Assembly (NCBI RefSeq): GCF_050402865.1
Contig: NZ_BAABMF010000007.1
Coordinates: 8,141-72,140, forward strand
Length of the DNA stretch: 64,000 bases
Direction: 5' to 3'
Source of the DNA: Clostridium sediminicola
Lineage (GTDB): Bacteria > Bacillota > Clostridia > Clostridiales > Clostridiaceae
Shown: positions 3,818-59,533 of the stretch, in pieces
Position numbering within the stretch: the stretch's first letter is position 1
Layout of the letters: every line of letters starts with the position of its first letter
The notes under the pieces: generated by a model
What the model was told of the DNA's origin: nothing
Databases searched by the model: none
Seen by the model: only the letters and a program-made list of their open reading frames with translations
Translations under genes and position numbers: made by a program

Positions 3818-3906
3818 TTCACAGTGCACAATTCACAATTATGCTGGATTGTGCATTATATATATCATCCAAGAAGTTCATCTATATATACGAAAGGAGA
3901 TATAAT

Positions 3907-24948: not shown

Positions 24949-25263
24949 TCTATAAATTTTTTCTTTATTATCTTCTATGAGCTCACAAAAACTTTTTTCA
25001 TCACCATTAATGGCTTTAATTACTTTTTTATTCAGAATTACCCCTCCTTACAAGTGGACTAAGCCTTACTCCACCCTGATATCAATTTAATGGATCCATC
25101 ATTATTTGTTTTTATCATTTACACTTATTAGACAAATTATATACTATAAATAGTTTCAATGTTTTTTATTTATTTTAATAATTTTGAAATAATAAAATAT
25201 CAACTAAAATTTCTAGATAAAACACACTTTTAAATGGTATTATATAATAGATAAACATTACGA

Positions 25264-25435
25264 AAACTTAATTTATACATGTCCAAAATCTCAGGCATTA
25301 ATGAATTTTGGACTTGTATAAATTTATAGTTGAAGTTGTTTATCTCTATAGATATAGAGAATCCTATGTTAAACTTAATTTATACTTGTATCAAAATCTC
25401 GACGTATCAACGAGTTTTGGACACGTATAAATTAA
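25264..25435. repeat. Two tandem copies of the 60-95 bp palindromic dispersed element (family B), separated by the palindrome TATCTCTATAGATATAGAGA
   Basis: Copy 1 at 25264-25345 has arms TTTATACATGTCCAAAAT / ATTTTGGACTTGTATAAA. Copy 2 at 25371-25435 is a degenerate version. Both share the 5' leader AAACTTAATTTATAC. Confidence 0.8.
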
Positions 25436-25477
25436 TAGTTTAACTGGAATCTCTACAATAAATAGACATTATGCAAC

Positions 25478-27406
25478 ATGAAAGGAATGTATATGAATTT
25501 ATTAACTATTGAAAATATAAGCAAAAGCTATAGCGAAAAAGTTTTATTGAATAACATCTCCCTAGGAATTGAAGATGGTGACAAAATTGGTTTAATTGGA
25601 ATTAACGGCACAGGTAAATCTACTTTTCTAAAAATAGTAGCTGGTTTAGAATATGAAGATAGCGGCAAAATCACTAAGGGTAACAATATTAGAATTGAAT
25701 ATCTTTCACAAAATCCATTTATGGATAATAACGCAACTGTCTTAGAACAGGTTTTCAAAGGTGATTCTTCTTTGATGGTTTTACTAAGAGAATATGAAAC
25801 TGTATTAGAAAAATTAAATTTAGATCCTCTGAATGCCAAATTTCAAAATCAATTAACAAATTTAAACCTAAAAATGGATGCTGCAAATGCATGGAAAGTA
25901 GAAAATGAAGCAAAAACTATCCTTACAAAATTAGGCGTTTCAAATTTTGAAGCTAAAATTGGCACTCTATCAGGTGGTCAGAAAAAGCGTATTGCGCTAG
26001 CTTCTACATTAATATCACCTGCAGATCTTTTAATACTTGACGAGCCTACAAACCATTTAGATAATGATACTATTGAATGGCTTGAAAAATTGTTGAATAA
26101 TCGTAAAGGCGCGCTATTAATGATAACACATGATAGATATTTTCTAGATAGAATAACAAACAAGATTATTGAATTAGATAAAGGTAATCTATACAGTTAC
26201 AAAGGTAATTATTCAGTATTTCTTCAAAAAAAAGCTGAAAGATTAGAGCTTGAAGCTGCAAATGAAAGTAAAAGACAAAATCTATATAGAAGAGAATTAG
26301 CTTGGATAAAAAGAGGTGCAAAAGCAAGAACAACTAAACAAAAGGCTAGAATAGATAGATTCGAAAAAATAAAAGACTCCAAAGTTGATATTAACGAAGA
26401 AAAAGTACAAATTTCTTCAGCTAGCAGCAGATTGGGTAAAAAAATTATTGAAATCGAGAATTTAAGTAAAAGTTATGATGATCTCAAACTGATTGATGAT
26501 TTTAGTTATATTTTACTTAGAGATGACAGAATAGGTATCGTCGGTGCTAATGGTATAGGTAAGTCTACATTGATGAATTTAATTTATGGAAAAACCTCTC
26601 CTGATACTGGCATGATAGACATAGGTGAAACTGTAAAAATCGGTTATTATTCTCAAGAAACTTCACATATGGATGAAACCTTACGTGTAATTGAATATAT
26701 TAAAGAAATTGCAGAATTCATAACAACTGCTGATGGAAGCAAAATAAGTGCTTCTCAAATGCTTGAAAGATTTTTATTTCCACCTTCAGCTCAATGGACA
26801 TATATCGGTAAACTTTCTGGTGGTGAAAAACGAAGACTTTATTTATTAAAAGTTCTAATGGATGCTCCTAATGTTTTATTTTTAGATGAACCTACAAATG
26901 ACTTGGATATCGAAACTCTAACTATCTTAGAAGATTACCTTGATAATTTTCACGGACCTATAATAGCAGTTTCACATGATAGATATTTTCTTGATAGAAT
27001 CGCTAACAAAATATTTTCTTTTGAGGGAAATGGGAAAATCACGAAGTATATAGGTGATTACTCAAATTATTGTGAAATTTCTAAAGAAAATAATGAAGCT
27101 AAACTCAAAACTGAGTCTTCTGAAAAAACTAGTATAAGAAAAAATAATGAAAATAAAAAAGAAAAGCCTTTAAAATTTTCTTATAATGAAAGAAGAGAAT
27201 TTGAAGAAATAGATTCTATAATCGAAACCATCGAAAACTCTTTGGTTGAAGTAGAAGAGAAGATAAATGGTGCTGGAAGTAACTACGGACTTTTACAAGA
27301 ACTCTTGTCTGAAAAAGAAAAACACGAGAAAGAATTAGAAGAAAAAATGGATAGATGGGCTTATTTAAATGAATTGAATGAGAAAATAAATGAAGCAAAA
27401 AATTAG
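25478..27406 (+). CDS. ABC-F family ATPase (Uup/EttA-like, tandem NBDs with C-terminal coiled coil)
   Basis: Two complete NBDs ([28 protein letters not shown] and GANGIGKST/LSGGEKRR/LFLDEPTNDLD). There is an inter-domain linker and no TM domain. The C-terminal region is charged and coiled-coil-like. Confidence 0.9.
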   Translation: MKGMYMNLLTIENISKSYSEKVLLNNISLGIEDGDKIGLIGINGTGKSTFLKIVAGLEYEDSGKITKGNNIRIEYLSQNPFMDNNATVLEQVFKGDSSLMVLLREYETVLEKLNLDPLNAKFQNQLTNLNLKMDAANAWKVENEAKTILTKLGVSNFEAKIGTLSGGQKKRIALASTLISPADLLILDEPTNHLDNDTIEWLEKLLNNRKGALLMITHDRYFLDRITNKIIELDKGNLYSYKGNYSVFLQKKAERLELEAANESKRQNLYRRELAWIKRGAKARTTKQKARIDRFEKIKDSKVDINEEKVQISSASSRLGKKIIEIENLSKSYDDLKLIDDFSYILLRDDRIGIVGANGIGKSTLMNLIYGKTSPDTGMIDIGETVKIGYYSQETSHMDETLRVIEYIKEIAEFITTADGSKISASQMLERFLFPPSAQWTYIGKLSGGEKRRLYLLKVLMDAPNVLFLDEPTNDLDIETLTILEDYLDNFHGPIIAVSHDRYFLDRIANKIFSFEGNGKITKYIGDYSNYCEISKENNEAKLKTESSEKTSIRKNNENKKEKPLKFSYNERREFEEIDSIIETIENSLVEVEEKINGAGSNYGLLQELLSEKEKHEKELEEKMDRWAYLNELNEKINEAKN

Positions 27407-27407
27407 T

Positions 27408-27505
27408 TAACAGCTCACAGTTGACAGTAAAGGATACCTTTCACTTTGTGGAAGCTTTAAATCATCCTTTACTGTCAACTGTCACCTGAGCACTGTCAAC
27501 TAACT
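27408..27505. terminator. Bidirectional terminator: a 19-bp-stem hairpin (ACAGTTGACAGTAAAGGAT ... ATCCTTTACTGTCAACTGT) built from family-A heptamer repeats
   Basis: Read directly from the sequence. It lies between two convergent ABC-F genes. Confidence 0.7.
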
Positions 27506-27507
27506 AA

Positions 27508-29145
<1,638 letters not shown>

Positions 29146-29370
29146 TTATTAATTCATAATGCACAATTGATGACACCTTTCTATTATATAGAAAGCTTTT
29201 AATTTAAGTAAAAGCTAAAATAATTATTTTTGCGTCAACAAAAGTACTTTATTATTGCAATCTGCAAAGCAGATAATAGCTTAGTTTAAAGATTCTCTGC
29301 AAGAAAATCACCATTAACTGTGCATTGTGCACTGTGCAATTATAACATACTTTATAACACTGAACAAACC

Positions 29371-30330
29371 TTATTTACTAATCAAACTAGCTAAATTAAG
29401 AAGTTCTTCATCAAAAGATTGCTTTTGCGATAATGCCACATCAATATCTTCATCAAATATCTTTCCAGCACTTATTCCTACAACTCTTGATGATTTACCT
29501 TGGATTAATACTCTAACTGCTTTAGCTCCAAGTTTTGATGCTAGTATAACATCATTAACAGTAGGACTACCCCCTCTTTGAATATGTCCTAAGATTGTAA
29601 TTCTTGTTCCTATACCAGTAACTTCTTGGACTGTTCTAGACAATTTTTCAGCTCCGCCAACCCCTTCGGCTAAAATCACCAAGTTATGTCTCTTTCCTAA
29701 CATTTTCCCTTCTAACAACGTTTTGCATAGTTGATCTACATCAAACTCTTTTTCAGGGACTATTATACTTAATGCTCCTCCTGCAACTCCTGCATAAAGA
29801 GCTAAATCTCCACAATTTCTTCCCATAACTTCAACAATACTAACTTGTCCATGAGAAGAAGATGTATCTCTCAGTTTCTTAATAGCATCTAAAGCAGTGT
29901 TTGCTGCTGTATCAAAACCTATAGTAGCATCTGTATAAGCTAAATCATTATCTATAGTTCCTGGAACTCCTACTGTTTTTATACCTAATTTTGATAATTC
30001 TCTAGCCCCTTGAAATGATCCATCTCCACCTATAACAACGAGCCCATCAATTCCATATACTTTTAGTATATTAAATGCTTTTTTTCTACCTTCCTCTGTC
30101 ATGAATTCTTTACACCTTGCAGTTCTTAAAATTGTTCCACCTCTTTGGATAATATCGCAAACACTATTTGAATTTAGTTCTGTTATTTCACCATTTATTA
30201 AACCTCTATATCCTCTTTGAATACCCATAACTTTCAGTCCATTACCTACACCATACCTAACCACTGCCCTTATAGCTGCATTCATGCCAGGCGCATCTCC
30301 ACCAGAAGTTAATACCGCAATTGTCTTCAT
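29371..30330 (-). CDS. pfkA: ATP-dependent 6-phosphofructokinase
   Basis: [30 protein letters not shown], and MGR plus PGTIDND motifs. Confidence 0.9.
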
Positions 30331-30455
30331 CTTATCTCCTCCAAAGCCTATACGTAAATTTTTCCTATTAATTATAACTATTTTACAATAATGATCAAAT
30401 ATTTACAACATCTGTAGTTATAAAGCTATAAAAAAAGAATGCATTACGCATCCTT

Positions 30456-31076
30456 TTAACTCTTTGATAAATCAAATTCTTCTATATATTCTATTTGCTC
30501 ATTTTTAAAATTTTTAAGCGTTTCAATGTCTTCTTTTTCTCTAGGACTTTTGGTTTCTATGCCTAATACTTTCCATTCAGCATTCTCTTTACTAAAAGTA
30601 TATTTTGTAAAAACTGTAATTTCTTTATTCACCTTTTCTAAAGTTTTATTTGTCTTTAAAAAAATATATTTAAAGCTCACGTCAGGCTCTTCATAAACTC
30701 CTGATATTGCAATAGGTTCATAAGTTATCTTCCCAACAGTTTTATTAACAGACTCATTCAAATTGTCAATTAATTTTTCTACTTCTTCATCAGTTATGTT
30801 CTCTAGATCGCTTTCTGTATACTCTCTACCCTCAAATCCAAAAATAGCTCTTTGGTTTTCAGAAAATTTACTAGAAAAAATACTTTGAACATTATTCCTA
30901 TAATCAGTAAGAGAAATCTCATTATTTAAAAGGTCATATTTGTTCTGTTCACTGTATATAACCATATCCAAAAGAAGTCTCTCCTCTTCACTTAGTTTTT
31001 TGTATTCATCGGTACTACACCCCACTATTGTATATATAATTACCAAACTTAGTAAAATCATTATTAATCGTTTCAC
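30456..31076 (-). CDS. hypothetical lipoprotein
   Basis: Signal peptide with a lipobox (IVGCSTDE). The mature part is acidic and repeat-free. Confidence 0.5.
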   Translation of the reverse strand: MKRLIMILLSLVIIYTIVGCSTDEYKKLSEEERLLLDMVIYSEQNKYDLLNNEISLTDYRNNVQSIFSSKFSENQRAIFGFEGREYTESDLENITDEEVEKLIDNLNESVNKTVGKITYEPIAISGVYEEPDVSFKYIFLKTNKTLEKVNKEITVFTKYTFSKENAEWKVLGIETKSPREKEDIETLKNFKNEQIEYIEEFDLSKS

Positions 31077-31223
31077 TAAAATCCCTCCATTTTAATATAT
31101 CACTATTAAAAGTAACTTTACCTCATTGATTACTCATAGTATAATTACTATTATTTTACATTAAATATAACACAATCCTTTTATATAGTCAAACTTACTA
31201 TATAATGATTTTATTTTTACCAC

Positions 31224-31259
31224 AAAGAAAGAGAGCTATTATATCAGCTCTCTTTCTTT
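31224..31259. terminator. 14-bp-stem hairpin AAAGAAAGAGAGCT-attatat-CAGCTCTCTTTCTTT downstream of the flotillin gene
   Basis: Read directly from the sequence. Confidence 0.55.
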
Positions 31260-31286
31260 AGATTAATTTATTCTTCTATAAATTTT

Positions 31287-32714
31287 CTATACTTCTTCAG
31301 CGTCTACTGCCTCTTCAACAGTTTCTTCAAGTTTTACTTCTGGTTTTTTACCTTGTAAAATTTCTGGAAGTTCAAGGCCAGCATTTTTAAATACATCTTC
31401 AAATGGTGGAATTGCTTTTAACATTCCTGAAAGGAAATTTGCAGTAGCTGGTGTACCGTCTCCATTTCCGCCTCCCATTGTATCCCAAACAGTAACTTTA
31501 TCAATTTTAATATTCTTTATTGCCTCTACTTGTAATTTAACTAGTTCAGGCAATTTATCAGTAATCATAAGCATAGCAGCACTTTCAGGATTATTTCCTG
31601 CAGCTTCAACAATTTCTTTGAAACCTTCAGCTTGTTTTCTAAGAATTTCCATTGTACCTTCTGCTTCTGCCTTCATTTTGAATAATATCGCATCTGCTTC
31701 ACCTTTTGCTTGTCGTCTAATTCTTTCTGCTTCTGCTTCCGCATCTAATTGAACTTTTTCTTTATCAATTTCAGCTTTTACGATAATGTCTGCAATATTT
31801 GTTGCTCTATCTCTCTCTGCACGAGCTTTTTCAGAATCTTGTTCAGCTGCATATGCCTCTTGTAAGGCTTTTGCTGTTTGAACTTTTTCTGCAGCAATTG
31901 CAATTTTCTCAGCTTCTGCTTCTTTTTCTCTTCTATCAGCATCAGACATTGCAACTGTAATTTTAGCTTCGTTCTCCCCTTTAATAGCTTGAGAATTAGC
32001 CTCAGAAACTCTAATTCTTTCTTCTCTCTTAGCTTGTGCCTCACCAATAGCACCATCTCTGTTTTTCTCAGCAACACTTTTCTTAGCATCATTTATAGCT
32101 TTTGCTGCTGCTTCTTTACCTAATGCTGAAATATATCCTGACTCATCTTTGATATCAGTAACATTTACGTTGATAAGTTTTAAACCAATTTTCTTTAATT
32201 CCTGCTCAACGTTTGCAGATACATTAGCTAGGAACTTATCTCTATCAGAGTTGATTTCCTCAATATCCATTGTAGCTATTACTAATCTAAGTTGACCAAA
32301 AATAATATCTTTAGCTAAATCTTGAATATTTTGTCTTGTTAAACCTAGTAATCTTTCTGCAGCATTTGTCATAACTTCAGTGTCAGTAGATATACCAACT
32401 GTAAATGTTGATGGAACATCAACTCTGATATTCTGCTTACTTAAGGCTTTAGTTAAATTAACATCAATTGAAATAGGTGTTAATTGCATGTATTCATAAC
32501 TTTGAATAACTGGCCATACAAAAGCTGCTCCACCATGAATACATCTTGCTGAACGGTCAGACCCCTCAGTATTTTTCCCTGTTTTACCATAGATAACTAA
32601 AATCTTGTCTGAAGGACATCTCTTGTATCTTGAAAATAATGCTATTATTACAACAAATAATGCTACAACAATAACGGCTGTTAAAATAATTGCTGGTAAG
32701 TTTAAATCTGGCAT
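31287..32714 (-). CDS. flotillin-family protein (SPFH/band-7 domain with Ala/Glu-rich coiled-coil; FloT/YuaG-like)
   Basis: N-terminal TM, SPFH-domain pattern and a long EA-repeat coiled coil (EAEAE..IAAE...). Length is 475 aa. Confidence 0.85.
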   Translation of the reverse strand: MPDLNLPAIILTAVIVVALFVVIIALFSRYKRCPSDKILVIYGKTGKNTEGSDRSARCIHGGAAFVWPVIQSYEYMQLTPISIDVNLTKALSKQNIRVDVPSTFTVGISTDTEVMTNAAERLLGLTRQNIQDLAKDIIFGQLRLVIATMDIEEINSDRDKFLANVSANVEQELKKIGLKLINVNVTDIKDESGYISALGKEAAAKAINDAKKSVAEKNRDGAIGEAQAKREERIRVSEANSQAIKGENEAKITVAMSDADRREKEAEAEKIAIAAEKVQTAKALQEAYAAEQDSEKARAERDRATNIADIIVKAEIDKEKVQLDAEAEAERIRRQAKGEADAILFKMKAEAEGTMEILRKQAEGFKEIVEAAGNNPESAAMLMITDKLPELVKLQVEAIKNIKIDKVTVWDTMGGGNGDGTPATANFLSGMLKAIPPFEDVFKNAGLELPEILQGKKPEVKLEETVEEAVDAEEV

Positions 32715-32775
32715 ATAAATTTCCCCTTTTCCATTATGATTTTTTATTTTAAAATTAGGCTTTCTAGTTCAACTA

Positions 32776-32840
32776 TTAATTTATACGTGTCCAAAAAGTA
32801 TTAAAGCTTCACTATTTTGAGACAAGTGTAAATTTAGTTT
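32776..32840. repeat. Family B palindromic element, copy 3
   Basis: TTAATTTATACGTGTCCAAAAAGT ... ACTATTTTGAGACAAGTGTAAATTTAG. Shares the TTAATTTATAC leader with the other copies. Confidence 0.7.
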
Positions 32841-32879
32841 CACTAAAGAAATCCTATACAATCCCCTGATTAAACATCT

Positions 32880-33509
32880 TTATTTAGCTTCTACAACAAA
32901 ATCGCCATTTTTTATTCCAACTACTTTTACTAATGAACCCGTTTTTAAAGACTGTCCTCTTGTAACTGAATCTACCACTTGATACTTGCCCTGAAAAGTT
33001 ATTTCAATTTTTCCAACTCCACTTTCCTTCTCTGGTATAGTCAGATAAACTTTTCCCTCTTTTCCAATGGCGTTTTTAGGGTTGATATTGCCACTTTCTT
33101 GAAGCTTTAATAAAGCTCTAAAAACAGCAGTCAAAATTCCAACCACAGCAGAAGCAACAATAATTGAAACGACTACAGTAGTAAATTTACCTAAATTATT
33201 ATCTATTGCAGTTATACCAGTCCATGAAAATACTGTAAGAAATATTACAACATTTCTAAAGGTTATTAATTTTAAAGGTATATTTGAACTGTTCACATCA
33301 GTCTCTGGATCGAATTCTATATCATCCATATCCCCATCAAAATCTATTCCTCCAATACTATCTGTATCAAGAGAATCAGGAACATCCCCACCTGAATCAA
33401 TTCCCATAATCAATAAAATCATTTGAACAACGAACAAACAAGTTGAAGGAATAGCTATCGTCCAAAAGATTTTTTCAAAATTCATTAAAGTATCCCACCA
33501 AATAGTCAT
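32880..33509 (-). CDS. NfeD-like membrane protein (C-terminal OB-fold; YuaF-like flotillin partner)
   Basis: A membrane N-terminal half plus the C-terminal motif G..VKVVGI.G..LVVE. The gene sits immediately upstream of the flotillin gene, as in yuaF-yuaG. Confidence 0.6.
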   Translation of the reverse strand: MTIWWDTLMNFEKIFWTIAIPSTCLFVVQMILLIMGIDSGGDVPDSLDTDSIGGIDFDGDMDDIEFDPETDVNSSNIPLKLITFRNVVIFLTVFSWTGITAIDNNLGKFTTVVVSIIVASAVVGILTAVFRALLKLQESGNINPKNAIGKEGKVYLTIPEKESGVGKIEITFQGKYQVVDSVTRGQSLKTGSLVKVVGIKNGDFVVEAK

Positions 33510-33666
33510 TTAATCCCCCTTTCAACTAGTAATGATTTGTAATTAATCTTTATTATACCATAAACATTGAATTAAACTATATTTATGAATAAATCTTTAC
33601 ACTTATTCATTCACATATTAAGAGAGCTAACTTGTATAAAATGTTACAGAATTTTATAAAAAAGAT

Positions 33667-33723
33667 AAAAAAAATCTAGAAACACTATATCAATTATCCG
33701 CTATAGTGTTTCTAGATTTTTTA
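33667..33723. terminator. 16-bp-stem hairpin ATCTAGAAACACTATA-N12-TATAGTGTTTCTAGAT flanked by A and T runs (bidirectional terminator)
   Basis: Read directly from the sequence. It overlaps the stop of the 33721..34155 gene. Confidence 0.7.
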
Positions 33724-34155
33724 AGTTCTCTTTTTAAATTCATATTTACACATCTTACATGTAACAACTAAGTTCCCTTTTCCTCTTGGTAATCTCAATT
33801 TTTGCTTACATTCTGGACATTTTACAACAACAAAGTTTTTTCTCTGTTCAACTTTTCTAATAGCTTTATAATATTGATTTTTTACTTTCAATAATATTCC
33901 TTTATTAAAATATTTAGATAGTTTATAATTTAAGCCACCTAATCTATATTTTATAGTACCCACAAAAGTTCTATATGCCATCTCTTCCTTTTGTCTCTTT
34001 GGAAAGTCTTTAGAAAAAATTCTAAAAATACTATACCCAATAAAAACTGGTGCAACAAAATATGATTTTGTAAGAATTAAAAGCACACCAACTATTAATA
34101 AAAACTTAGAAAAACTATCTAAGCCGTATTTACCGTTAATATAATTATTCTTCAT
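33721..34155 (-). CDS. small membrane protein with a C-terminal zinc-ribbon (CPEC...C..C)
   Basis: One or two TM helices, then CPECKQKLRLPRGKGNLVVTCKMCKYEF. It is the first gene of the flotillin operon. Confidence 0.5.
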   Translation of the reverse strand: MKNNYINGKYGLDSFSKFLLIVGVLLILTKSYFVAPVFIGYSIFRIFSKDFPKRQKEEMAYRTFVGTIKYRLGGLNYKLSKYFNKGILLKVKNQYYKAIRKVEQRKNFVVVKCPECKQKLRLPRGKGNLVVTCKMCKYEFKKRT

Positions 34156-34395
34156 GTCTTCACCCCTGTTTTGCTATATTATATTTTGAAATGATATCTC
34201 TATCCAATCTGTAGATCACAATTGAAATAGATTGCGAAGCGCTTTTCTTCGCAATTTATAATCATTCCTTCTTCTTAAATTAATTCTAATACCCAAGAAT
34301 ACTAATTACAATAGCTTTTCACCTTTATTAATACTTTTTTTATAATTGAAAGAAAAAACCACACCATTTATGCTGCATACTATATATATTCAACT

Positions 34396-34470
34396 GTGAA
34401 ATTTAATTTATACATGTACCAAAATCTCCGGTACTAACGAGTTATGGTACATGTATAAATCTATTATTGA
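34396..34470. repeat. Family B palindromic element, copy 4
   Basis: Arms TTTATACATGTACCA / TGGTACATGTATAAA form a perfect 15-bp pair. Leader AAATTTAATTTATAC. Confidence 0.75.
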
Positions 34471-34509
34471 GCTTAGATATCTATTTCTAAAATAAATTTT
34501 ATTTTTCCC

Positions 34510-34539
34510 TTGACAATTAGCAAAATTATTAATACTATT
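34510..34539 (+). promoter_or_regulatory. Sigma-A-type promoter of the ytrA-like operon (TTGACA-N18-TACTAT)
   Basis: -35 TTGACA at 34510-34515 and -10 TACTAT at 34534-34539. Confidence 0.5.
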
Positions 34540-34542
34540 ATT

Positions 34543-34567
34543 AGTGTACTAATAAACACAGTACACT
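34543..34567. promoter_or_regulatory. YtrA-type operator AGTGTA-N13-TACACT, plus an extra TACACT half-site 3 nt downstream
   Basis: AGTGTA at 34543-34548, a 13-nt spacer, TACACT at 34562-34567. A second TACACT lies at 34571-34576. Confidence 0.6.
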
Positions 34568-34685
34568 TAATACACTTAATACAGTTTCATGATTATTCAA
34601 AAATATAATTAAAGCTTTTGCTTGCAAAAGGTATCCATTACTGACAACTGTCAACTGAAATAATGTATTGAAAGGAGGTCTTTAT

Positions 34686-35090
34686 TTGATAAAAATAAAT
34701 AGTAGAAGTAGTCGTCCTATCTATGAACAGATTATAAATGGAATTAAAGAAAACATACTTAAAGGAATTCTTGAACCTGGAGAAAAACTCCCTTCAGTAA
34801 GGGAAATGTCTTCATTAATTACCGCTAATCCGAATACGGTAAGTAAAGCCTATAAGGAACTTGAAAGGCAGAAGGTAATAGAAACTATACGAGGAAGAGG
34901 AACTTATGTATCTTCAGATTATAAACCAAGACTAGAGGAGGATAGAATGAAGGTATTGAAGGAAGAAATAAAAAAAATCATAATTGAAGCTCATTATATG
35001 GGAATAAAAAAAGAAGACCTTATAAACCTTATGAATAATTTTTATGAAGAAGTAGACAAAAATTCAGTAACAGAAGGAAGTGAAAAATAG
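34686..35090 (+). CDS. ytrA: GntR-family transcriptional repressor, YtrA subfamily
   Basis: Winged-HTH pattern (LPSVREMSSLITANPNTVSKAYKELERQKVIETIRGRGTYV). The short C-terminal domain is typical of the YtrA subfamily. TTG start at 34686 is 8 nt after AGGAGG. The ORF-track start at 34668 would place the RBS inside the gene. Confidence 0.75.
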   Translation: MIKINSRSSRPIYEQIINGIKENILKGILEPGEKLPSVREMSSLITANPNTVSKAYKELERQKVIETIRGRGTYVSSDYKPRLEEDRMKVLKEEIKKIIIEAHYMGIKKEDLINLMNNFYEEVDKNSVTEGSEK

Positions 35091-35974
35091 TGATTAAAAT
35101 ATCCAATATAAATAAAAGTATTGAAAACAAAAAAATACTTAATAATATAAATCTAACTGTATCAAAAGGAAGTATATTTGGATTGATTGGTCCTAATGGT
35201 GCTGGCAAAACTACTTTAATAAAATGTCTCACAGGTATTTACGATGTTGAAGATGGCCAAATAGAAATAATGGAACAACCGGTTTTTAATAATTGCTCTA
35301 TAAAAGAAAAATTTGCTTATGTTCCAGATACAAATTCTTTTTTTGAATTTCATAAGATAAAAGATGTGATTAAATTCTATACACTTACTTACAAAGATTT
35401 TGACATAGAAAAATTTCATAGTATCAATAGAGTTTTTAATATACCTTTGAATTCTTCATTAAAAAAATTATCTAAAGGAATTAACATGAGACTTTCACTA
35501 CTATTAGCACTTTGTATAAAACCAGAAGTACTAATTTTAGATGAGCCATTGTCCGGAATAGATCCTATAGTAAAAAGCCAAATTTTAAAACTTTTAATAG
35601 AAGAAACTGCTGAAAGAGAAACAACAATATTTATATCTTCACATAATCTAAGCGACCTTGAGAAAATATGTGATACTATTGCAGTTATGAATAATGGTGA
35701 AATAAAACACTTCAGTTCCTTAGATAATATGAAAGAGAATTTCAAAAAAATCCAAATAGTTTTTAAAGATTCACCTCCTAATATTCAGGACTTACCTGGA
35801 GTTATTTCCTCAAATACTATTGGAAGAGTTTATACTATTGTTACTTCTCAATATGAATCATTCAAAAAAGAACTTGAAGAATGCGACCTAATTCTTTTTG
35901 AAGAAATAGATTTAAGTTTAGAAGATATTTTTATTCATTCTCTAGGAGGTGATGGCCTTGAAGAAATTTTATAA
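35090..35974 (+). CDS. ABC transporter ATP-binding protein (YtrB-like)
   Basis: Walker A GPNGAGKTT, signature LSKGINMRL (degenerate), Walker B LILDEPLSGID, H-loop SSH. Confidence 0.85.
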   Translation: MIKISNINKSIENKKILNNINLTVSKGSIFGLIGPNGAGKTTLIKCLTGIYDVEDGQIEIMEQPVFNNCSIKEKFAYVPDTNSFFEFHKIKDVIKFYTLTYKDFDIEKFHSINRVFNIPLNSSLKKLSKGINMRLSLLLALCIKPEVLILDEPLSGIDPIVKSQILKLLIEETAERETTIFISSHNLSDLEKICDTIAVMNNGEIKHFSSLDNMKENFKKIQIVFKDSPPNIQDLPGVISSNTIGRVYTIVTSQYESFKKELEECDLILFEEIDLSLEDIFIHSLGGDGLEEIL

Positions 35975-37016
35975 TAAAGCTTTATTTTATAAAGAATTCA
36001 AATCATCTTTAAGTTTTATTGGTATATTATGGCTTTCATTATTTATGGAATTCACCAATCACTTTATACGTGAAACACAAAATTTAAAAACTTTGTCAAA
36101 AGATTTAATTTCCATGGGAACATATAATTCTATAGAGTTTACAGAAAATATCTCTAACACTTTATCTAGTCTTTCAAATAATAGTGGAATGTTTTATTCA
36201 ATTTGTTCATTAATAATAATTAGTTTTTGGATTGTAGGAAAGGAAAGACAAAACAATAGAAATGAAATGCTCAGTACTATGCCCTTTTCAAGAGAAGAAA
36301 TCATAGGCACGAAATGGATATTAGTTTTTATTTCAATAATCATTGCTATGTTTCTAAATTTAGCAATCATTTTATGGAATTGTTCTGTAAATTCCAATAT
36401 TTATTCTATTATTCCAAATATATATAATTTATTACTCTATTGGATAATTTCAAAAACTTTGCTTTACATTTTTATTTTCACTTTTATAATGTTTGTTTCC
36501 TCAATTTGCGGAAGATTTTTTACCGGAGGATTATTAGGCTCTATATTCTTGATTGTACCTTTTTATCTAACTGTTACTATCCCTCCTTTTATTGGATATT
36601 TTGCAGTTATTAATGGAACCAGATTAATATCAGAAGCAACGATTGCTAATTTAGAAAATTTTGTTCTTCGAATATATGCTTTATTTAATTTTTATACTTA
36701 TGATAATAATTTGGTCAAATACTTCAATACTTTATCTTTACTTTCAATCATAGGTATTATCATCTTCTTAAGCTTATTATTTATATCATTCAAAAATAAT
36801 AGCTTTGAAAAAATCAATGAACTTTGTATGTTCAAATCTTTTGAATATATATTGAAAATTGGTGTATCTGTCTGTTTCACATTGTTGATAACCACTATAG
36901 CCGTTGACACAAATGCTCATACAATTGAAGATGCATACATTGCTGCACCTACTGCTTTTATAACTTTGATAGTAACATATATCTTAACAAATAAAATCAT
37001 TAAATACTTTAAATAA
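35949..37016 (+). CDS. ABC-2-type membrane permease (YtrC/D-like)
   Basis: Polytopic hydrophobic protein of 355 aa. It overlaps the upstream ATPase gene, indicating translational coupling. Confidence 0.6.
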   Translation: MMALKKFYNKALFYKEFKSSLSFIGILWLSLFMEFTNHFIRETQNLKTLSKDLISMGTYNSIEFTENISNTLSSLSNNSGMFYSICSLIIISFWIVGKERQNNRNEMLSTMPFSREEIIGTKWILVFISIIIAMFLNLAIILWNCSVNSNIYSIIPNIYNLLLYWIISKTLLYIFIFTFIMFVSSICGRFFTGGLLGSIFLIVPFYLTVTIPPFIGYFAVINGTRLISEATIANLENFVLRIYALFNFYTYDNNLVKYFNTLSLLSIIGIIIFLSLLFISFKNNSFEKINELCMFKSFEYILKIGVSVCFTLLITTIAVDTNAHTIEDAYIAAPTAFITLIVTYILTNKIIKYFK

Positions 37017-37111
37017 ATTGAGAAGTAAGCTTAGCAATTTATTTCCATTTTGCAACAACTTATAAATTTGAAAATTTTTTAAATAATCATCAAAATATTG
37101 GAGGAAATATA

Positions 37112-38020
37112 ATGAATGTTTTAGAAGTTAAAAACCTAAAAAAACGTTTAGGTAAACGAGAAATCATTAAAGATGTAAGCTTTTCAGTAAAAAAAGGGGA
37201 GATTTTTGGATTTTTAGGGCCAAATGGTGCTGGTAAAACTACAACAATAAGAATGCTTGTAGGTCTAATCGCTCCAAATTCAGGTTCTATATCCATTATG
37301 GGTCATGATATAAAAAGCGAAAGAGAGCTAGCTCTTGACAAAGTGGGCGCTGTTGTTGAGAACCCTGAATTATATACTTATTTATCTGGAAGAGAAAACT
37401 TAATGCAGGTTGCTAGAATCAGAAAAATTTCTAAGAAAAGAGTAGATGAAGTTGTTGAATTAGTTCAATTAACAGACCGTATAAATGATAAAGTCAGAAA
37501 ATATTCTTTAGGAATGAAGCAAAGATTAGGATTAGCCTTAGCCTTATTATCAAAACCTGCGTTATTAATATTAGATGAGCCAACAAACGGTTTAGACCCT
37601 TCTGGAATACTTGATTTTAGAGAAATAGTACAAAAGGCTGCAAAAGAAACTGGCACAGCTGTTTTTGTTTCCTCTCATATACTAGCAGAAATCCAACAAT
37701 TATGTGATACAGTTGCTTTTATTAATAACGGCGTTATTCAATCAGTAGAAAGCTTAAATAAAAAAGAAAAGGAAAAATTAGTTTCAGTTACTCTAATTAC
37801 TAAAGAAATTGAAAAAGCTACAGCTATTCTAAGTTCCCTTTCATTTATAAAAGATTTTTCATCAAAAGAAAATACTTTTTCAATAAAAGTCTCTGAAGAA
37901 TTGATACCCGAAATTGTATTTGCTCTTGCAGAACATCGAATCCCTATTGATGAAATTTTCAAGAGCCATAGAGAGCTTGAAGAAAGATATATGCAGCTTG
38001 TTGAAGGAGGAATCAGATAA
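37112..38020 (+). CDS. ABC transporter ATP-binding protein (YtrE/BcrA-like)
   Basis: [40 protein letters not shown]. Confidence 0.85.
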   Translation: MNVLEVKNLKKRLGKREIIKDVSFSVKKGEIFGFLGPNGAGKTTTIRMLVGLIAPNSGSISIMGHDIKSERELALDKVGAVVENPELYTYLSGRENLMQVARIRKISKKRVDEVVELVQLTDRINDKVRKYSLGMKQRLGLALALLSKPALLILDEPTNGLDPSGILDFREIVQKAAKETGTAVFVSSHILAEIQQLCDTVAFINNGVIQSVESLNKKEKEKLVSVTLITKEIEKATAILSSLSFIKDFSSKENTFSIKVSEELIPEIVFALAEHRIPIDEIFKSHRELEERYMQLVEGGIR

Positions 38021-39213
38021 TGTTTACTTTAATTAAAAATGAAACAATTAAACTTTTAAAAAGGACCAAAACTTTAGTTACTTTTATTGCTTTTCTTTTG
38101 CTTACTGTGTTAATCACATTCTCTACTTATAAAATGATAGAGAATAATAAAAAATGGCAAGATCCTGATTACAAGATTCAAATGGCCCAAGAAAATATTA
38201 ACCGTTACAAAGCTGATAAAACAAGTTCAGATGTGGACAAAGATTATCAAAACCAAATAGATGAGTTAATAAAAAATGAAGAAGCAAATATTGAACAATA
38301 TAAATTAGAAAAAGAACAAGGTAAAGTAGATTGGAAAGTAACTGTTAACAAAACAATCGAAGATTCAAAAAATCTACTAAAGGATGAAACTCTTACAAAA
38401 GAATCTAAAGAGAGTATTCAGCAACAGTTAGACTTAAATGAATATTATATTGCTAATAACATAGAACCTAACGATAATGTGTTTAATGCTTATAATGCTT
38501 TAGGGACTATAATAATGATTTTGGGTTCTATATTCCTAGCAATAGGATTAGCAATCTTTGCATCAGATATGGTATCTGGAGAATATACTCCTCCAACAAT
38601 GAAGGTGCTATTAATTCAACCTGTTTCTAGGGGCAAAGTTCTATTTTCCAAATTTATATCTATAGCTTTGACCTGTGTAACTCTAATAGTATCTGTTGAA
38701 ATATTAACATTCTTGTTTGTAGGTGTTTTCTTTGGCTTTGGCAGCAGTAATTATCCTGTAGTAGTGGGTAAGAAATTTTATTTTGACAAAATAGTATCAA
38801 GTAATGCAGCTCCACAAATAAAAGAAATACTTGGAAGTTCTCATATTGCTCCTATTTGGAAAGTTACACTACAAGGAGTTTTGCTTCAAATACTCTTTAT
38901 AATAGCAGTTGTTGCCTTTGTTTTCCTTATCTCTACTGTTATGAAAAGTAGTATGTTATCAATGAGTTTAAGTAACGTAACTATAGTTGCCTTATTTATA
39001 ATTCCTAATTTATCACACAGTATAAAGAAAGTAATGCCTTATTGTTTCATAACATATGGTAATAGCTATGCTTTACTTGATGGTTCTTTAAATATGGGTT
39101 ATAATACACCTTTCATAACTCCATTATCTGCTTCACTGGTAATGAGTATTTGGATAGTTGTTTGCTACTTAATATCACACTTTGTATTTGTAAAGAAAGA
39201 CGTTTTAATATAG
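38020..39213 (+). CDS. ABC transporter permease with a large extracytoplasmic coiled-coil loop (YtrF-like)
   Basis: One N-terminal TM, about 140 aa of a charged extracellular region, then several TM helices. The start overlaps the ATPase stop. Confidence 0.6.
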   Translation: MFTLIKNETIKLLKRTKTLVTFIAFLLLTVLITFSTYKMIENNKKWQDPDYKIQMAQENINRYKADKTSSDVDKDYQNQIDELIKNEEANIEQYKLEKEQGKVDWKVTVNKTIEDSKNLLKDETLTKESKESIQQQLDLNEYYIANNIEPNDNVFNAYNALGTIIMILGSIFLAIGLAIFASDMVSGEYTPPTMKVLLIQPVSRGKVLFSKFISIALTCVTLIVSVEILTFLFVGVFFGFGSSNYPVVVGKKFYFDKIVSSNAAPQIKEILGSSHIAPIWKVTLQGVLLQILFIIAVVAFVFLISTVMKSSMLSMSLSNVTIVALFIIPNLSHSIKKVMPYCFITYGNSYALLDGSLNMGYNTPFITPLSASLVMSIWIVVCYLISHFVFVKKDVLI

Positions 39214-39222
39214 CTTCATAAT

Positions 39223-39256
39223 AAAATCCTCAGAAGTAATGATTTCTGAGGATTTT
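39223..39256. terminator. Bidirectional terminator hairpin AAAATCCTCAGAA-N8-TTCTGAGGATTTT
   Basis: Read directly from the sequence. It lies between the convergent ytr-like operon and the response-regulator gene. Confidence 0.7.
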
Positions 39257-39257
39257 G

Positions 39258-39932
39258 TTATCTGGATTTCAAAAATTTATATGCTCCTGTTTCTATCATA
39301 AGCTTTTTTACTTCACTAGTTTTTTTGCATCCAAATTTATGAATAATATTCCCAACATGATACTTAATTGTTACTAATTCAACTCCTCTTATGGCCGCAA
39401 TCTCTTTTTGCTTTTTACCATCCATAAGAAGATTCATAATACCAATTTCTGTATTTGTTAAACTAGATATCATATTAACCACATTTAATAGATTATTTCT
39501 CAAATTTTCAAACTCAACTAGTTTCTTTCTTATAGTAGTGGCAGCATATGACCTTATTGGAGACGAATCGTTATATGCTTGTCTTATAGCTTCTAAAATT
39601 TCAGAAGAAGATGCTGTTTTTAAAACATAATCAACTGCTCCTGCCTCATAAGCTTCAATAATTGCTTCTTCATCTTCATGGCAAGTAAGCATGATAATTT
39701 TTATGTTAGGATTCATATTCAAAATTTCTTTGGTGGCCTTTATACCTGTATCTTTTGAATCCATTTCAATATCCATTAAAATAATATCCGCTTCATGTTT
39801 TTGTGCTAATTTTACTACCTCACTCCCATTATATGCTCTACCAATAACCTCCAAGTCTTTCTCATAATTAATTAAATTATAATATATATTATTTAGTGTT
39901 TCAAAATCTTCAGCAATAATACATTTGATCAT
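39258..39932 (-). CDS. LuxR/NarL-family response regulator
   Basis: Receiver domain with Asp (ILMDIEM), Thr and Lys at the conserved positions. C-terminal LuxR-type HTH (KQKEIAAIRGVELVTIKYHVGNIIHKFG). Confidence 0.8.
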   Translation of the reverse strand: MIKCIIAEDFETLNNIYYNLINYEKDLEVIGRAYNGSEVVKLAQKHEADIILMDIEMDSKDTGIKATKEILNMNPNIKIIMLTCHEDEEAIIEAYEAGAVDYVLKTASSSEILEAIRQAYNDSSPIRSYAATTIRKKLVEFENLRNNLLNVVNMISSLTNTEIGIMNLLMDGKKQKEIAAIRGVELVTIKYHVGNIIHKFGCKKTSEVKKLMIETGAYKFLKSR

Positions 39933-41425
39933 AACTGCCCCCTATTATTTGGTATATACAATTTAAAACTAGTACCTTTATCAAGAATACTTTCTACATC
40001 AATAACTCCTCCAAAAGCTTCAATAACCTTTTGACAATAGGCTAGTCCTATTCCCCAATTTGAAACAGTAGCTTTTGTTGAGTAAAATGGTTGGAATATT
40101 TTATCTATATCTTTTTTATCCATACCGCAACCGTTATCATGAATTTCAATCACTCCATATTCTACCTTCTCATCTATCACAACAGTAATTTCAGGGCTAT
40201 CCATAAAACTACAAGCTTCTATAGAATTTCTTATAATATTTTCCATAACCTTTTTGAACTCTTTCTTATCAATATTTAAATAAATAGTTCTTTTCTCTAT
40301 AACATCAAAGGTTATACTAGGATTCATCTTTTTAAAAGTTTCTATCATTTTAAGAACAATCTTATTTACATCAACAAAACTGTACTTTAGCTTTATCTTA
40401 CTCATGTTTTTCGATAATTGACTAATTTGTTCTATAGTCTCATTACATATTCTAATTATTTCATTTTGTAATAACTCGTCATCTTTCTTTTTAGATTCCT
40501 CAGCTAAGTATCTTATTGCAATTAGTTGATTTTTAACTGAATGAGAAAATATCCTTCCTCCAATATTTGCTGTATGTAATTGTTTTTCAAAATCTATATT
40601 ATTTTTTCGTACATTTATTTCAAATATATTGTATTTCAATATTGCATAGATTAATAAAATTACAGATACTACTGATATTATTGTTATTCCATTATAAAGA
40701 ATCTCATTATAAGGAATGCTTATATTTGATAACTGTCCAAATCTGCTAAAAATTATCTTTTGATTAGGATACCAATAAAATAAAACAAGAAATAGAAAAT
40801 GTATAGGAATAATTCCAATAAACATATACTTGAATTTTTTTCTAAGTTTCGGTATGATTCTACTTTCAATATATAACAGAACAATAATGCTGGTTACGAG
40901 GTAAATTTTCATTAGTGAATTGGAAACTAAAGCTAATGACTTTATTATAGAATTCACCTTGATATAATAATCTGAATTTACATATCCATTAAAAATCACT
41001 CTATTATTTATCTTATATATAACCTTTAGTACATCTGGATCAAACAATATTATTAATACTAAAGGAAAAACTGCTAATACCAAATAAGCTACTTTCTTAG
41101 AGTGTTTGCTCACAATAAATGAAACTGAAAAACAAATAGCTCCGTATATATATATGGCAGTACCTATGTTCATTATTCTATATTGGTCATTTATATCAAG
41201 CTTCAAAAAATAATTTATTTTCCATATATAATTTGAAATGTTAGAATAAAGTCCGTTTACAGTGTAGTGAGAACTACTTAAATACTCTGTATAAAAAGCT
41301 AATCCAAACATAGCTAATGAAAATCCAATAAGCATAGTGCTAAGCCAAACTATATTTTTTGTTCTATAATTTTTTACTATTAGAAAAATATTAAAAATAA
41401 TATATGTGAAAAATAACCATATCAT
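39929..41425 (-). CDS. polytopic membrane sensor histidine kinase (6-7 TM N-terminal domain; AgrC/HPK10-like H-box; HATPase_c)
   Basis: About 260 aa of TM helices. H-box FSHSVKNQLIAI, N-box IIRNSIEA, G-boxes HDNGCGM and NWGIGL. The start codon overlaps the response-regulator gene by 4 nt. Confidence 0.75.
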   Translation of the reverse strand: MIWLFFTYIIFNIFLIVKNYRTKNIVWLSTMLIGFSLAMFGLAFYTEYLSSSHYTVNGLYSNISNYIWKINYFLKLDINDQYRIMNIGTAIYIYGAICFSVSFIVSKHSKKVAYLVLAVFPLVLIILFDPDVLKVIYKINNRVIFNGYVNSDYYIKVNSIIKSLALVSNSLMKIYLVTSIIVLLYIESRIIPKLRKKFKYMFIGIIPIHFLFLVLFYWYPNQKIIFSRFGQLSNISIPYNEILYNGITIISVVSVILLIYAILKYNIFEINVRKNNIDFEKQLHTANIGGRIFSHSVKNQLIAIRYLAEESKKKDDELLQNEIIRICNETIEQISQLSKNMSKIKLKYSFVDVNKIVLKMIETFKKMNPSITFDVIEKRTIYLNIDKKEFKKVMENIIRNSIEACSFMDSPEITVVIDEKVEYGVIEIHDNGCGMDKKDIDKIFQPFYSTKATVSNWGIGLAYCQKVIEAFGGVIDVESILDKGTSFKLYIPNNRGQL

Positions 41426-41470
41426 AATTAACTCCTCGTAAATCTTTTATTCTGTAGATAAAACATAAGT

Positions 41471-41560
41471 AAACTTAATCTATACATGTACAAAATCTCA
41501 GGTAACAATAAGTTTTAGACTTGTATAGATTTATTGTTCAAGTGCTTTATCTCTATTATA
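41471..41560. repeat. Family B palindromic element, copy 5, with a TTTATCTCTAT tail
   Basis: AAACTTAATCTATACATGTACAAAATCTCAGG ... AGTTTTAGACTTGTATAGATTTATTGTTCAAGTGCTTTATCTCTAT. Confidence 0.75.
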
Positions 41561-41616
41561 GCATGGTTACCCAAAAAAAGTAAAAGAGCAGATTCCTCTG
41601 CTCCTTTGCATTCAGT

Positions 41617-45998: not shown

Positions 45999-46226
45999 TT
46001 AACAAGACAAGTTTTTTTTCATCCTTTTTTTTATAATATTTATAATTATACTTAAATAGTATAGTAAAACCTTATACTTTTTTTAGGCTATATTTTAAGC
46101 TACTGTTGATTTAAATGATTGGAGGCACTATTTATAAAGTTGCATTATTTATAGTTTACAGTTCACAATGTACAGTCCACAGTAATGGGCAATTATCTGC
46201 GAAAACCTTTGAATCGAGTAAAAGAT

Positions 46227-46280: not shown

Positions 46281-46335
46281 AAATCAAAAACTAAATTTTG
46301 TTGCATTTAGCTACATGTTCTATATGATAAATTTA

Positions 46336-47481: not shown

Positions 47482-47507
47482 ATAAATCCTCCAAGCTTAT
47501 CTATAGA

Positions 47508-49725: not shown

Positions 49726-49744
49726 ATATTCCCTCCAACTTTAG

Positions 49745-59438: not shown

Positions 59439-59533
59439 AGTTAGCACCCCTTTATTCAGTGCACAATTCACAATGCACAATTCACAATTATTGTTGATTT
59501 TCTGAGAAAATCTTTAAATTTATTAATCTTACC

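Follow-up and report, generated by a model that had tools for sequence, protein, structure and literature searches.

A TA-flanked palindromic element of 101 bp in Clostridium sediminicola, most probably a family of miniature inverted-repeat transposable elements widespread in Clostridia

A stretch of 64,000 nucleotides from Clostridium sediminicola (positions 8,141 to 72,140 of the forward strand of contig NZ_BAABMF010000007.1, assembly GCF_050402865.1; called the window in the following) contains five related palindromes, numbered here as copies 1 to 5 in the order of their positions. Their presence raises the question of what such palindromes are and whether they serve the genes next to them. 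The original prediction, made from the letters of the window, described a dispersed element with a preference for promoter-proximal positions and considered three explanations: a mobile hairpin similar to a MITE (miniature inverted-repeat transposable element), an array of binding sites for a global regulator, and a small structured RNA. The observations described below favor the first of these. The palindromes most probably belong to a family of TA-duplicating MITEs that is widespread in Clostridia.

All five copies are found where they had been predicted, are clearly related to each other and exceed chance expectation by far. With a tolerance of up to three mismatches, a degenerate 25-mer taken from the left arm matches the window seven times, and every match is an arm of one of the five copies; shuffled sequences give 0.08 matches on average, and none of 100 shuffles reaches seven. 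A profile built with nhmmer from 99 copies of other genomes recognizes exactly five places in the window (E = 1e-9 to 6e-20). The covariance model, run with its filters off, returns the same five only, the next best match having E = 0.06 at 33658-33739. This best non-member match is an ordinary bidirectional terminator with a symmetric hairpin, AAAAAATCTAGAAACACTATA...TATAGTGTTTCTAGATTTTTT, between two minus-strand genes. A further 8 kb beyond the window, added by way of its first gene, contain no additional copy.

The boundaries of the element were defined by aligning the 99 copies from other genomes, each extended by 40 nt in both directions. Conservation sets in and breaks off abruptly, at TA/TAG(G/A)(G/A) on the left and at (C/T)(C/T)CTA/TA on the right, where the slash marks the edge; on the right side the base composition is that of the background one base past the flank. 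With these boundaries the element measures 101 bp, from TAG to CTA, in each of the five window copies. The extent of 60-95 bp given in the original prediction was thus too short, only the inner 65-90 bp having been noticed.

The order of parts is the same from either end to the tip. The left terminus, TAG(G/A)(G/A), and its complement at the right terminus, ...CTA, are followed inward by an outer inverted repeat of ~18 bp, which differs by subfamily, and then by the highly conserved core palindrome TTAATTTATACATGTCCAAAA / TTTTGGACATGTATAAATTAA. The inverted repeat of the core, TTAATTTATACATGT(C)CAAAA with its complement, is kept in every genome sampled, lies 24-45 nt from each end of the element, and is more than 90% conserved at ~30 positions among 56 divergent representatives. 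The tip is short and variable, and it is often self-complementary even though its sequence differs between subfamilies. The element has the ends TAGRG... / ...CYCTA and arms that are complementary over 39 consecutive pairs. A weak internal polarity is present, with ...GAAACTTAAT on one side and ATTAATAGTTGA... on the other, and it is this polarity that shows copy 3 to be inverted. The tail TTGAAGTTGTTTATCTCTATA, which had been described as shared by two copies, represents the right-hand outer inverted repeat, whose left-hand partner is TAGATAAAC...; these outer arms are present in all five window copies in diverged subfamily versions. The lack of coding capacity noted earlier holds, with stop codons in all six frames in four of the five window copies. 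Among 162 copies checked there are at most one to three open frames, and none of the copies lies in a real gene. The element is therefore small and non-coding and carries terminal inverted repeats, as a MITE does.

The element inserts at TA and duplicates it. A check for target-site duplications had been suggested with the original prediction. TA flanks the element at both ends in 93-97% of the 99 copies, and two insertions can be reversed exactly. In the first of these, at locus L009, a young copy is nested in an older, diverged one. When the young copy is removed together with one TA, a full-length older element results (nhmmer positions 4-106, E = 1e-12), which had previously been recognizable as a 26-bit fragment. 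In the second, a copy interrupts a pseudogene of an IS982-like (DDE_Tnp_1_3) transposase in Paramaledivibacter caminithermalis (L103 439-543 and L029 193-297). Removal of the copy and one TA from L103 regains the reading frame ...GYKLHLLV/SLDGFITDF..., where the slash marks the junction, and after this removal the alignment to the Pfam domain DDE_Tnp_1_3 (residues 124-210, E = 4e-10) runs straight through the junction. The unit formed by this IS982-like insertion sequence (IS) and the element occurs at least twice with 98.8% identity (L103 and L029), one of the occurrences being at a contig start. Head-to-tail tandem copies have one TA in common (CCCTA-TA-TAGGG).

Empty sites in relatives complement the reconstructions. 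The 209-amino acid (aa) gene and the flotillin gene on the two sides of copy 3 are 166 bp apart in the window. The same gap is 2 bp in Clostridium sp. DL1XJH146, a 1-bp overlap in the metagenome-assembled genome (MAG) CSMAG_105, and 25 bp in C. grantii, so that the site is empty in all three. At the site of copies 1 and 2, the closest relative available (L108, from Logan SRR30503350, with 82% identity in the ABC-F gene) has lost copy 2 and all of copy 1 except its left ~33 nt; copy 2 is likewise not present at the orthologous loci L109, L111 and L117. The covariance model, which the original prediction had proposed to build, recovers the five window copies, and it finds no copy in any of the orthologous regions that were fetched from relatives.

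Locus L108 carries a palindrome of its own upstream of the ABC-F gene. At 3990-4060, a perfect palindrome of 23 nt, TATAGATAAGTTGCTTATCTATA, resembles a mini element made of the ends only; the remaining ~33 nt from the left of copy 1 come directly after it and precede the ribosome-binding site.

Derivatives of the element exist as well, in the form of truncated copies and of internally deleted minis of ~48 bp. Solo half-matches number 9, as compared with 165 full copies, and look like truncations. The idea of a MITE-like mobile hairpin is thus supported by the sharp, TA-flanked ends, the two exact reconstructions of empty sites, the empty orthologous sites, the dispersal in many copies and the deleted and truncated derivatives.

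The family extends far beyond C. sediminicola. In a scan with the core pattern, which took one genome per species, more than 107 stretches match, from at least 17 clostridial genomes and MAGs in two orders and at least seven genera. The hosts include Paramaledivibacter caminithermalis, two Wukongibacter species, Maledivibacter, Desnuesiella, two Oceanirhabdus species and several MAGs, as well as C. grantii, C. oryzae, C. folliculivorans, C. manihotivorum, C. guangxiense and C. yunnanense. The matching loci and the window together yielded 165 distinct copies. A search of plasmid and phage collections with copy 2 (blastn in distant mode) gave no match. Four matches to the core pattern in viral contigs have the wrong spacing, are not recognized by the covariance model and were set aside as chance.

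The copies differ widely in age. The identity of nearest neighbors is 93-97% in Wukongibacter sp. M2B1, Paramaledivibacter and C. grantii, where some copies are identical, which indicates recent amplification in these three. The window copies have a median pairwise identity of 64% and a maximum of 80%, and each of them is at least as similar to copies of other genera as to its neighbors. Because of this divergence, the cross-genus similarity and the decayed flanks (CA, TG, TT and AT), the five copies of the C. sediminicola window are, to judge from their sequences, old relics of at least two subfamilies. A neutral recent burst, which had been named as the outcome that would speak against function, therefore fits Wukongibacter and Paramaledivibacter but not this genome, in which the copies are old. 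Subfamilies are shared across genera, with identities of up to 96% between Paramaledivibacter and Wukongibacter and of up to 83% between C. grantii and Wukongibacter. Such sharing suggests either horizontal spread among anaerobes or strong constraint by the transposition machinery.

Three further sequences (L019 6557-6615, L103 173-230 and L089 2633-2740) start with the left terminus of the family (TATAGGTTTTACATAGTAAAACTTAA...) and continue with a different inner sequence. The one in L089 ends ~80 bp on with a tail, GTTGAAGTTGTTTATCTCTAT, that resembles the tail of window copy 1. These sequences may represent a sister family with the same termini.

The position of the copies relative to genes bears on the second explanation, according to which the core is the site of a global transcription factor that controls the ABC-F, flotillin, ytrA-like and kinase genes of the window. 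Some properties would suit an operator: the conservation of the core inverted repeat at ~30 positions mentioned above, the preservation of all 43 core-arm positions in one orthologous pair (L017 and L071) with 92.6% identical flanks, and the placement of all five window copies no more than 250 bp upstream of a start codon. The last property extends the original statement, which had counted four such copies, but in tandem and divergent intergenic regions nearly every position has it. In a survey based on long open reading frames (ORFs) as gene calls in all loci, 141 copies could be classified. Every copy is intergenic, the two seeming exceptions being spurious ORFs of ~90-100 aa that run across the element, and sites are found only between genes or in dead genes. 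The copies are distributed over 108 tandem, 22 divergent and 11 convergent positions, close to the availability of such regions (473, 74 and 77, respectively). Within tandem regions, 62 copies are nearer to the upstream stop codon and 45 nearer to the downstream start codon, and the orientation relative to the flanking genes is the same in 52 cases and opposite in 56. The promoter-proximal impression gained from five copies does not generalize, since the copies elsewhere show no bias of position or orientation.

The genes next to the copies are unrelated housekeeping genes. Pantothenate kinase, thymidine kinase and rubrerythrin are among those that lie between copies at other loci, and these genes have no function in common. 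The fixed position, the related genes and the orthologous conservation expected of an operator regulon are thus not found. Furthermore, the copies have transposon ends, TA duplications and nested insertions, the orthologous promoters of relatives are without the site, and half-sites placed 20-30 bp apart over a variable spacer would be atypical for a dimeric operator. It is extremely unlikely that the element is an array of regulator sites.

The third explanation draws on the hairpin. As a single strand the element folds into one hairpin over its whole length, with a mean predicted energy of -33 kcal/mol that reaches -41 kcal/mol in young copies. Covariation was evaluated in the 56 representatives, which are less than 88% identical to each other, on a structure of 41 pairs obtained with a dynamic programme for column pairing. 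Paired cells amount to 87.4%, whereas shuffling gives 79.3% and sliding the partner columns gives 30-44%, and 25 of the 41 stem pairs have changed on both sides. None of 500 shuffles reaches any of these measures, with the caveat that the structure was derived from the same alignment and that the sequences are related. RNAalifold applied to a plain MAFFT alignment returned the core stem only, because insertions and deletions misalign the outer arms and the tip. The compensatory changes that had been noticed in the arms are therefore real and extensive, and they reach the outer arms and often the tip. They are not diagnostic of a hairpin function, however, because inverted repeats recognized by a single protein covary in the same way as the arms of a hairpin.

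The element might in principle represent a family of small structured RNAs, or of cis-acting RNA hairpins under selection, such as RNase III sites, mRNA stabilizers or attenuators. Long stable hairpins with covarying arms are what this explanation predicts, and some copies are very probably transcribed, because copies 1 and 2 have a -10-like box, also conserved in L108, on one side and the ribosome-binding site of the ABC-F gene on the other, and copy 3 lies at what is an operon junction in relatives. Such effects on transcripts are known for Correia and ERIC elements (PMC10969869). The window contains no match to Rfam at gathering thresholds, however, and neither does any element in ten loci of other species; at relaxed thresholds, copies 1 and 2 match only generic models of eukaryotic microRNA hairpins, which is noise. 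The orientation to flanking genes is random, as described above, and the sense strand has no significant advantage in stability over the antisense strand (62 copies versus 46, p = 0.15). Copies are also found between convergent genes and inside a dead IS, relatives are without copies at the same loci, and no promoter or terminator is consistently attached to the element. A small structured RNA thus receives no positive support, and an RNA function of the family is very unlikely.

Among bacterial MITEs, a class has been described whose members measure 100-200 bp, have TA at the termini and form long stem-loops (PMC2229807). Members of the IS630/Tc1/mariner group duplicate TA and need only ~24-30 bp of each inverted repeat (PMC2170065). 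Because this group is known for the TA duplication and for requiring the inverted-repeat ends only, the enzyme that mobilizes the element, acting in trans, would be an IS630/Tc1-mariner-type DDE transposase. Cleavage would take place at the terminal TAG, and in the simplest reading the conserved core would be the likely binding site of the transposase.

Candidates for a partner gene or a parent element were sought at the loci of the copies. The ORFs that recur near copies encode MalQ, response regulators, ABC ATPases and similar proteins. Where loci have repeats of at least 300 bp in common, these comprise orthologous regions, further conserved segments and one IS982-like pseudogene, and this pseudogene is an insertion target of the element instead of its parent. 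Ten single genes lie between two copies, and all of them encode housekeeping proteins or proteins of unknown function, none being Y1_Tnp.

Not all observations agree with an ordinary MITE moved by a DDE enzyme. Neither an autonomous partner nor a matching IS was found in the ~0.9 Mb around the copies, no transposase gene lies beside any copy, and the pattern YSPxLNPIE of Tc1/IS630 transposases has no match in these fetched loci, which is a weak negative. The best-conserved part of the element is the core and not the outermost 20 nt as in most MITEs. The palindromy reaches into the tip in many subfamilies, which the binding of a protein to the inverted repeats alone would not need. The + strand is the more stable one in 112 of 162 copies (112 versus 50), the copies being non-independent. 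Minis of ~48 bp that have no core, found at four loci in two genera (L098 1295-1328, L062 3438-3471, L049 2073-2106 and L029 1975-2007), keep both termini and have the same junction, ATAGTA/TAAATT, in all cases. If these minis have transposed, the core is dispensable for mobility and its conservation is unexplained. An alternative origin of the minis is recurrent deletion at a GTA microhomology at the base of the core hairpin.

The strand asymmetry also appears in the pairing. On the + strand, G:T pairs outnumber A:C mismatches 130 to 54, a count dominated by a few subfamily-specific columns and non-independent copies, and inflated because the derivation of the structure counted G:T as a pair. 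The independent test with rare variants of young subfamilies gives 29 G:T versus 18 A:C, which is not significant (p = 0.14). The stability of the + strand and the G:T excess are hints that have no explanation at present.

These properties can be compared with those of REPINs, in which case the whole palindrome would consist of two REP-like units and would fold as single-stranded DNA; a single-copy HUH/Y1 transposase (RAYT or IS200/IS605-type) would move it, and the two would persist together vertically. The palindrome over the whole length at about -33 to -41 kcal/mol, the changes on both sides of 25 of the 41 pairs with 87% of cells paired (30-44% when slid), the tips that are often self-complementary despite the differences between subfamilies, and the more stable + strand would all be accounted for, and so would the GTAG in the arms of Wukongibacter copies and a core kept across two orders, with copies of C. 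grantii and Wukongibacter up to 83% identical. The clean 2-bp duplication of TA in both reconstructions, however, is a mark of DDE enzymes of the Tc1/IS630 type and not of HUH enzymes. This argument has a limit, as insertion 3' of TA by an element with TA at its own end could look like a duplication. In addition, no gene for a Y1 transposase lies between or beside copies in 107 loci, the Clostridium subfamilies are without GTAG, the solo half-units are rare (9 versus 165) and look truncated, and the excess of G:T over A:C among rare variants is not significant. A REPIN-like nature of the element is accordingly regarded as unlikely.

The conservation of the core might have yet another cause. 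The core palindrome, of roughly 2 x 22 bp, is more than 90% conserved over two orders, and the true termini and the tip vary freely. In the orthologous copies L017 3424-3533 (Clostridium sp. C8-1-8) and L071 6698-6808 (C. manihotivorum), the core arms are identical at 43 of 43 positions, ~7 of 17 tip positions differ, and the right outer arm has strongly diverged. With a background divergence of 7.4%, the absence of differences at 43 positions corresponds to roughly p = 0.04 for this single pair. The comparison hints at constraint on the core or at hypermutable unpaired parts, with the reservation that it is one pair only. It is conceivable, though improbable, that the core is selected for something beside or beyond DDE transposition, either a REPIN-like single-strand system with a dedicated single-copy transposase or an exapted module that is bound by a host protein or processed as RNA. 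This proposal rests on hints, namely the stability of the + strand, the identical core arms and the apparent spread of core-less derivatives. If it is true, such a REPIN-like or exapted-core system would be the first described in Clostridia. The preferred interpretation is still that of a MITE that would be moved by a TA-duplicating transposase, with the core as the likely binding site.

The individual copies in the window illustrate the state of decay of the family in this genome. Copy 1 (25248..25348, + strand, nhmmer E = 2e-14, 81.6 bits in the covariance model) runs over 101 bp from TAG to CTA and belongs to the 'GATAAAC' subfamily. Its right flank is TA (25349-25350), and its left flank has decayed (TATA-A-TAG). 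It is located in the divergent intergenic region between the gene of an extracytoplasmic function (ECF) sigma factor and the ABC-F gene, upstream of the latter. Copy 2 (25355..25455, + strand, 101 bp, E = 6e-20, 98.3 bits) follows after a gap of 6 bp, TA-GA-TA. It belongs to the 'GAGAATCC' subfamily, is flanked by TA (25353-25354) on the left and CA (25456-25457) on the right, and ends ~38 bp before the ABC-F start codon (25493). Its nearest relatives, with 82-84% identity, are in C. grantii, Oceanirhabdus and a MAG of the Clostridiaceae.

Copy 3 (32756..32856, 101 bp) is on the - strand, in the opposite orientation to the other four, and both of its scores (E = 3e-15, 82.9 bits) refer to that strand. 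It has TA at 32857-32858 and a decayed AT at 32754-32755, and the 209-aa gene and the flotillin gene between which it lies are both on the minus strand. Copy 4 (34383..34483, + strand, 101 bp, E = 8e-12, 75.3 bits) is decayed, with TAT instead of TAG at the left end, TT as the right flank and the core variant ACATGTACCA / TGGTACATGT. The GntR/ABC (ytrA-like) operon, whose regulator belongs to the GntR family by Pfam, has its predicted promoter downstream of the copy, where a promoter-like TTGACA-17-TACTAT is present at 34510-34538. Copy 5 (41455..41555, + strand, 101 bp, E = 1e-9, 72.2 bits) is another member of the 'GATAAAC' subfamily, and its flanks have decayed to TG and TT. Two minus-strand genes border it, one for a solute-binding protein with its stop codon and one for a histidine kinase with its start codon, and the terminator of the upstream gene is at 41582-41607. 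Copies 3 and 5 are also directly downstream of a stop codon.

The copies in the window are flanked by genes for an ECF sigma factor, the ABC-F protein, a Band_7 flotillin, a GntR regulator together with an ABC transporter, a histidine kinase and its LuxR-type partner, and a solute-binding protein. The ABC-F protein has 100% identity with a protein of C. sediminicola. The kinase near copy 5 (39258-41425) has a generic HATPase_c domain. The label 'AgrC-like' given to it in the original prediction is doubtful and probably a mislabel, because the kinase pairs with a response regulator of the LuxR/GerE type and not of the LytTR type.

The copies may still influence the genes next to them. A promoter scan found 100 promoter-like sites where 99.6 are expected in such AT-rich DNA; it is therefore uninformative as a test, and only single sites are considered here. 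A -10-like box (TGnTATTAT/TATAAT) upstream of copy 1 is also present in L108. Because of this common box, copies 1 and 2 are probably part of the ABC-F leader, to which they may add two hairpins of ~100 nt. Alternatively, the right end of copy 2 (TTAATA-16-TACAAT) might provide the start site of the ABC-F transcript. Copy 3 may form a hairpin in the transcript upstream of the flotillin gene, at a site that is an operon junction in relatives. At the right edge of copy 5, a TATAAT box of the -10 type faces the kinase gene. Effects on neighboring genes would be incidental, with the ABC-F leader and the transcript upstream of flotillin as the only places where the element is a possible modifier. 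None of the window copies is likely to be essential, because relatives manage without them.

The window contains other repeats. A palindrome of ~110 bp with the arms CAGTTGACAGTAAAGGAT / ATCCTTTACTGTCAACTG lies at 27397-27506, between the convergent stop codons of two ABC-F genes. It is richer in GC than the 101-bp family and has further repeats, ...CACAG / CTGTCAAC, outside its arms. With only 19.9 bits in the covariance model (E = 0.24), it was rejected as a member of the family. A short repeat, AATTCACA(G/A)TGCACAATTCACAATTAT, occurs at 3816-3850 and 59465-59499 (89% identical) and at 46160-46194 (69%), and may be the 'family A' of the original prediction. Finally, 46332-50851 is a tandem duplication with a period of 2.24 kb and 86-91% identity that comprises two successive pairs of paralogous minus-strand genes of ~360-380 aa.

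The element is a new MITE family of the ordinary kind, and neither an array of regulator sites nor an RNA gene. Literature searches returned neither a described clostridial MITE nor this family, which is also missing from Rfam and from two reviews, of 2024 and 2008. The 2024 review of prokaryotic MITEs does not name Clostridia or Firmicutes and lists one Firmicute, Staphylococcus aureus (PMC10969869). For annotation, the element provides a defined repeat family for Clostridiaceae and Peptostreptococcales, 101 bp long, TA-flanked and with a diagnostic core. It accounts for many intergenic palindromes that could be mistaken for operators or small RNAs, and probably for some assembly breaks.

Four groups of known elements can be compared with it. 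The ERIC/IRU elements of enterobacteria are imperfect palindromes of ~127 bp with TA termini that occur in many genera at transcribed intergenic sites and have no known transposase (PMC2229807). They share with the clostridial element the palindrome, the TA termini and the spread across genera, but differ in sequence and phylum, and the TA duplication of the clostridial element is documented by two exact reconstructions. REP/REPIN-RAYT systems are also hairpin-forming extragenic palindromes in many copies, with pairing kept across variants. Unlike REP elements (PMC2817692), the clostridial element duplicates TA, consists of 101-bp units from TAG to CTA and has no RAYT flanked by copies in the sampled loci.

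RUP of pneumococcus is ~107 bp long and non-coding, has TA termini and targets, inserts into IS, and has been proposed to be mobilized in trans by a transposase of the IS630 family (PMC2229807), which makes it the precedent for such a mechanism in a Gram-positive host. Its size, its TA targets, its Gram-positive host and its insertion into IS, seen here in L103 and L029, all have counterparts in the clostridial element. The ends of RUP match IS630-Spn1, whereas no parent IS was found for the clostridial element in the ~0.9 Mb, and RUP is limited to pneumococcus and its close relatives, whereas the clostridial element occurs in at least seven genera of two orders; this is a comparison by description only.

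Correia elements of Neisseria (also CREE or NEMIS) are found with search patterns such as TATAG[CT]GGATTAA..., and their short CREE form has 104-108 bp (PMC2649163). They belong to the same size class, duplicate TA, have terminal inverted repeats and dispersed intergenic copies, insert occasionally into genes or IS, and have internally deleted length variants; the mobilizing enzyme is not known in either case. Correia termini read TATAG..., and several subfamilies of the clostridial element start with TATAGGGATT or TATAGGGTT. The similarity does not extend beyond about the first 10 nt, and TATAG with GGATT or GGGTT is common only to some subfamilies. The core TTAATTTATACATGTCCAAAA is without a Correia counterpart, the hosts are Clostridia and not Neisseria, and the clostridial element has no IHF site. 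Firmicutes are not known to have IHF. The element is not placed in the Correia family, because the arms are unrelated beyond ~10 nt and the terminal Correia repeat of ~24-26 bp, TATAG[CT]GGATTAA(CAAAAA/ATTTAAA)..., is absent. Effects involving promoters and RNase III have been demonstrated for Correia elements. Judging from these shared properties, Correia/CREE and RUP are its closest analogues. The clostridial family offers a candidate system in which the transposase of a Correia-like element could be found.

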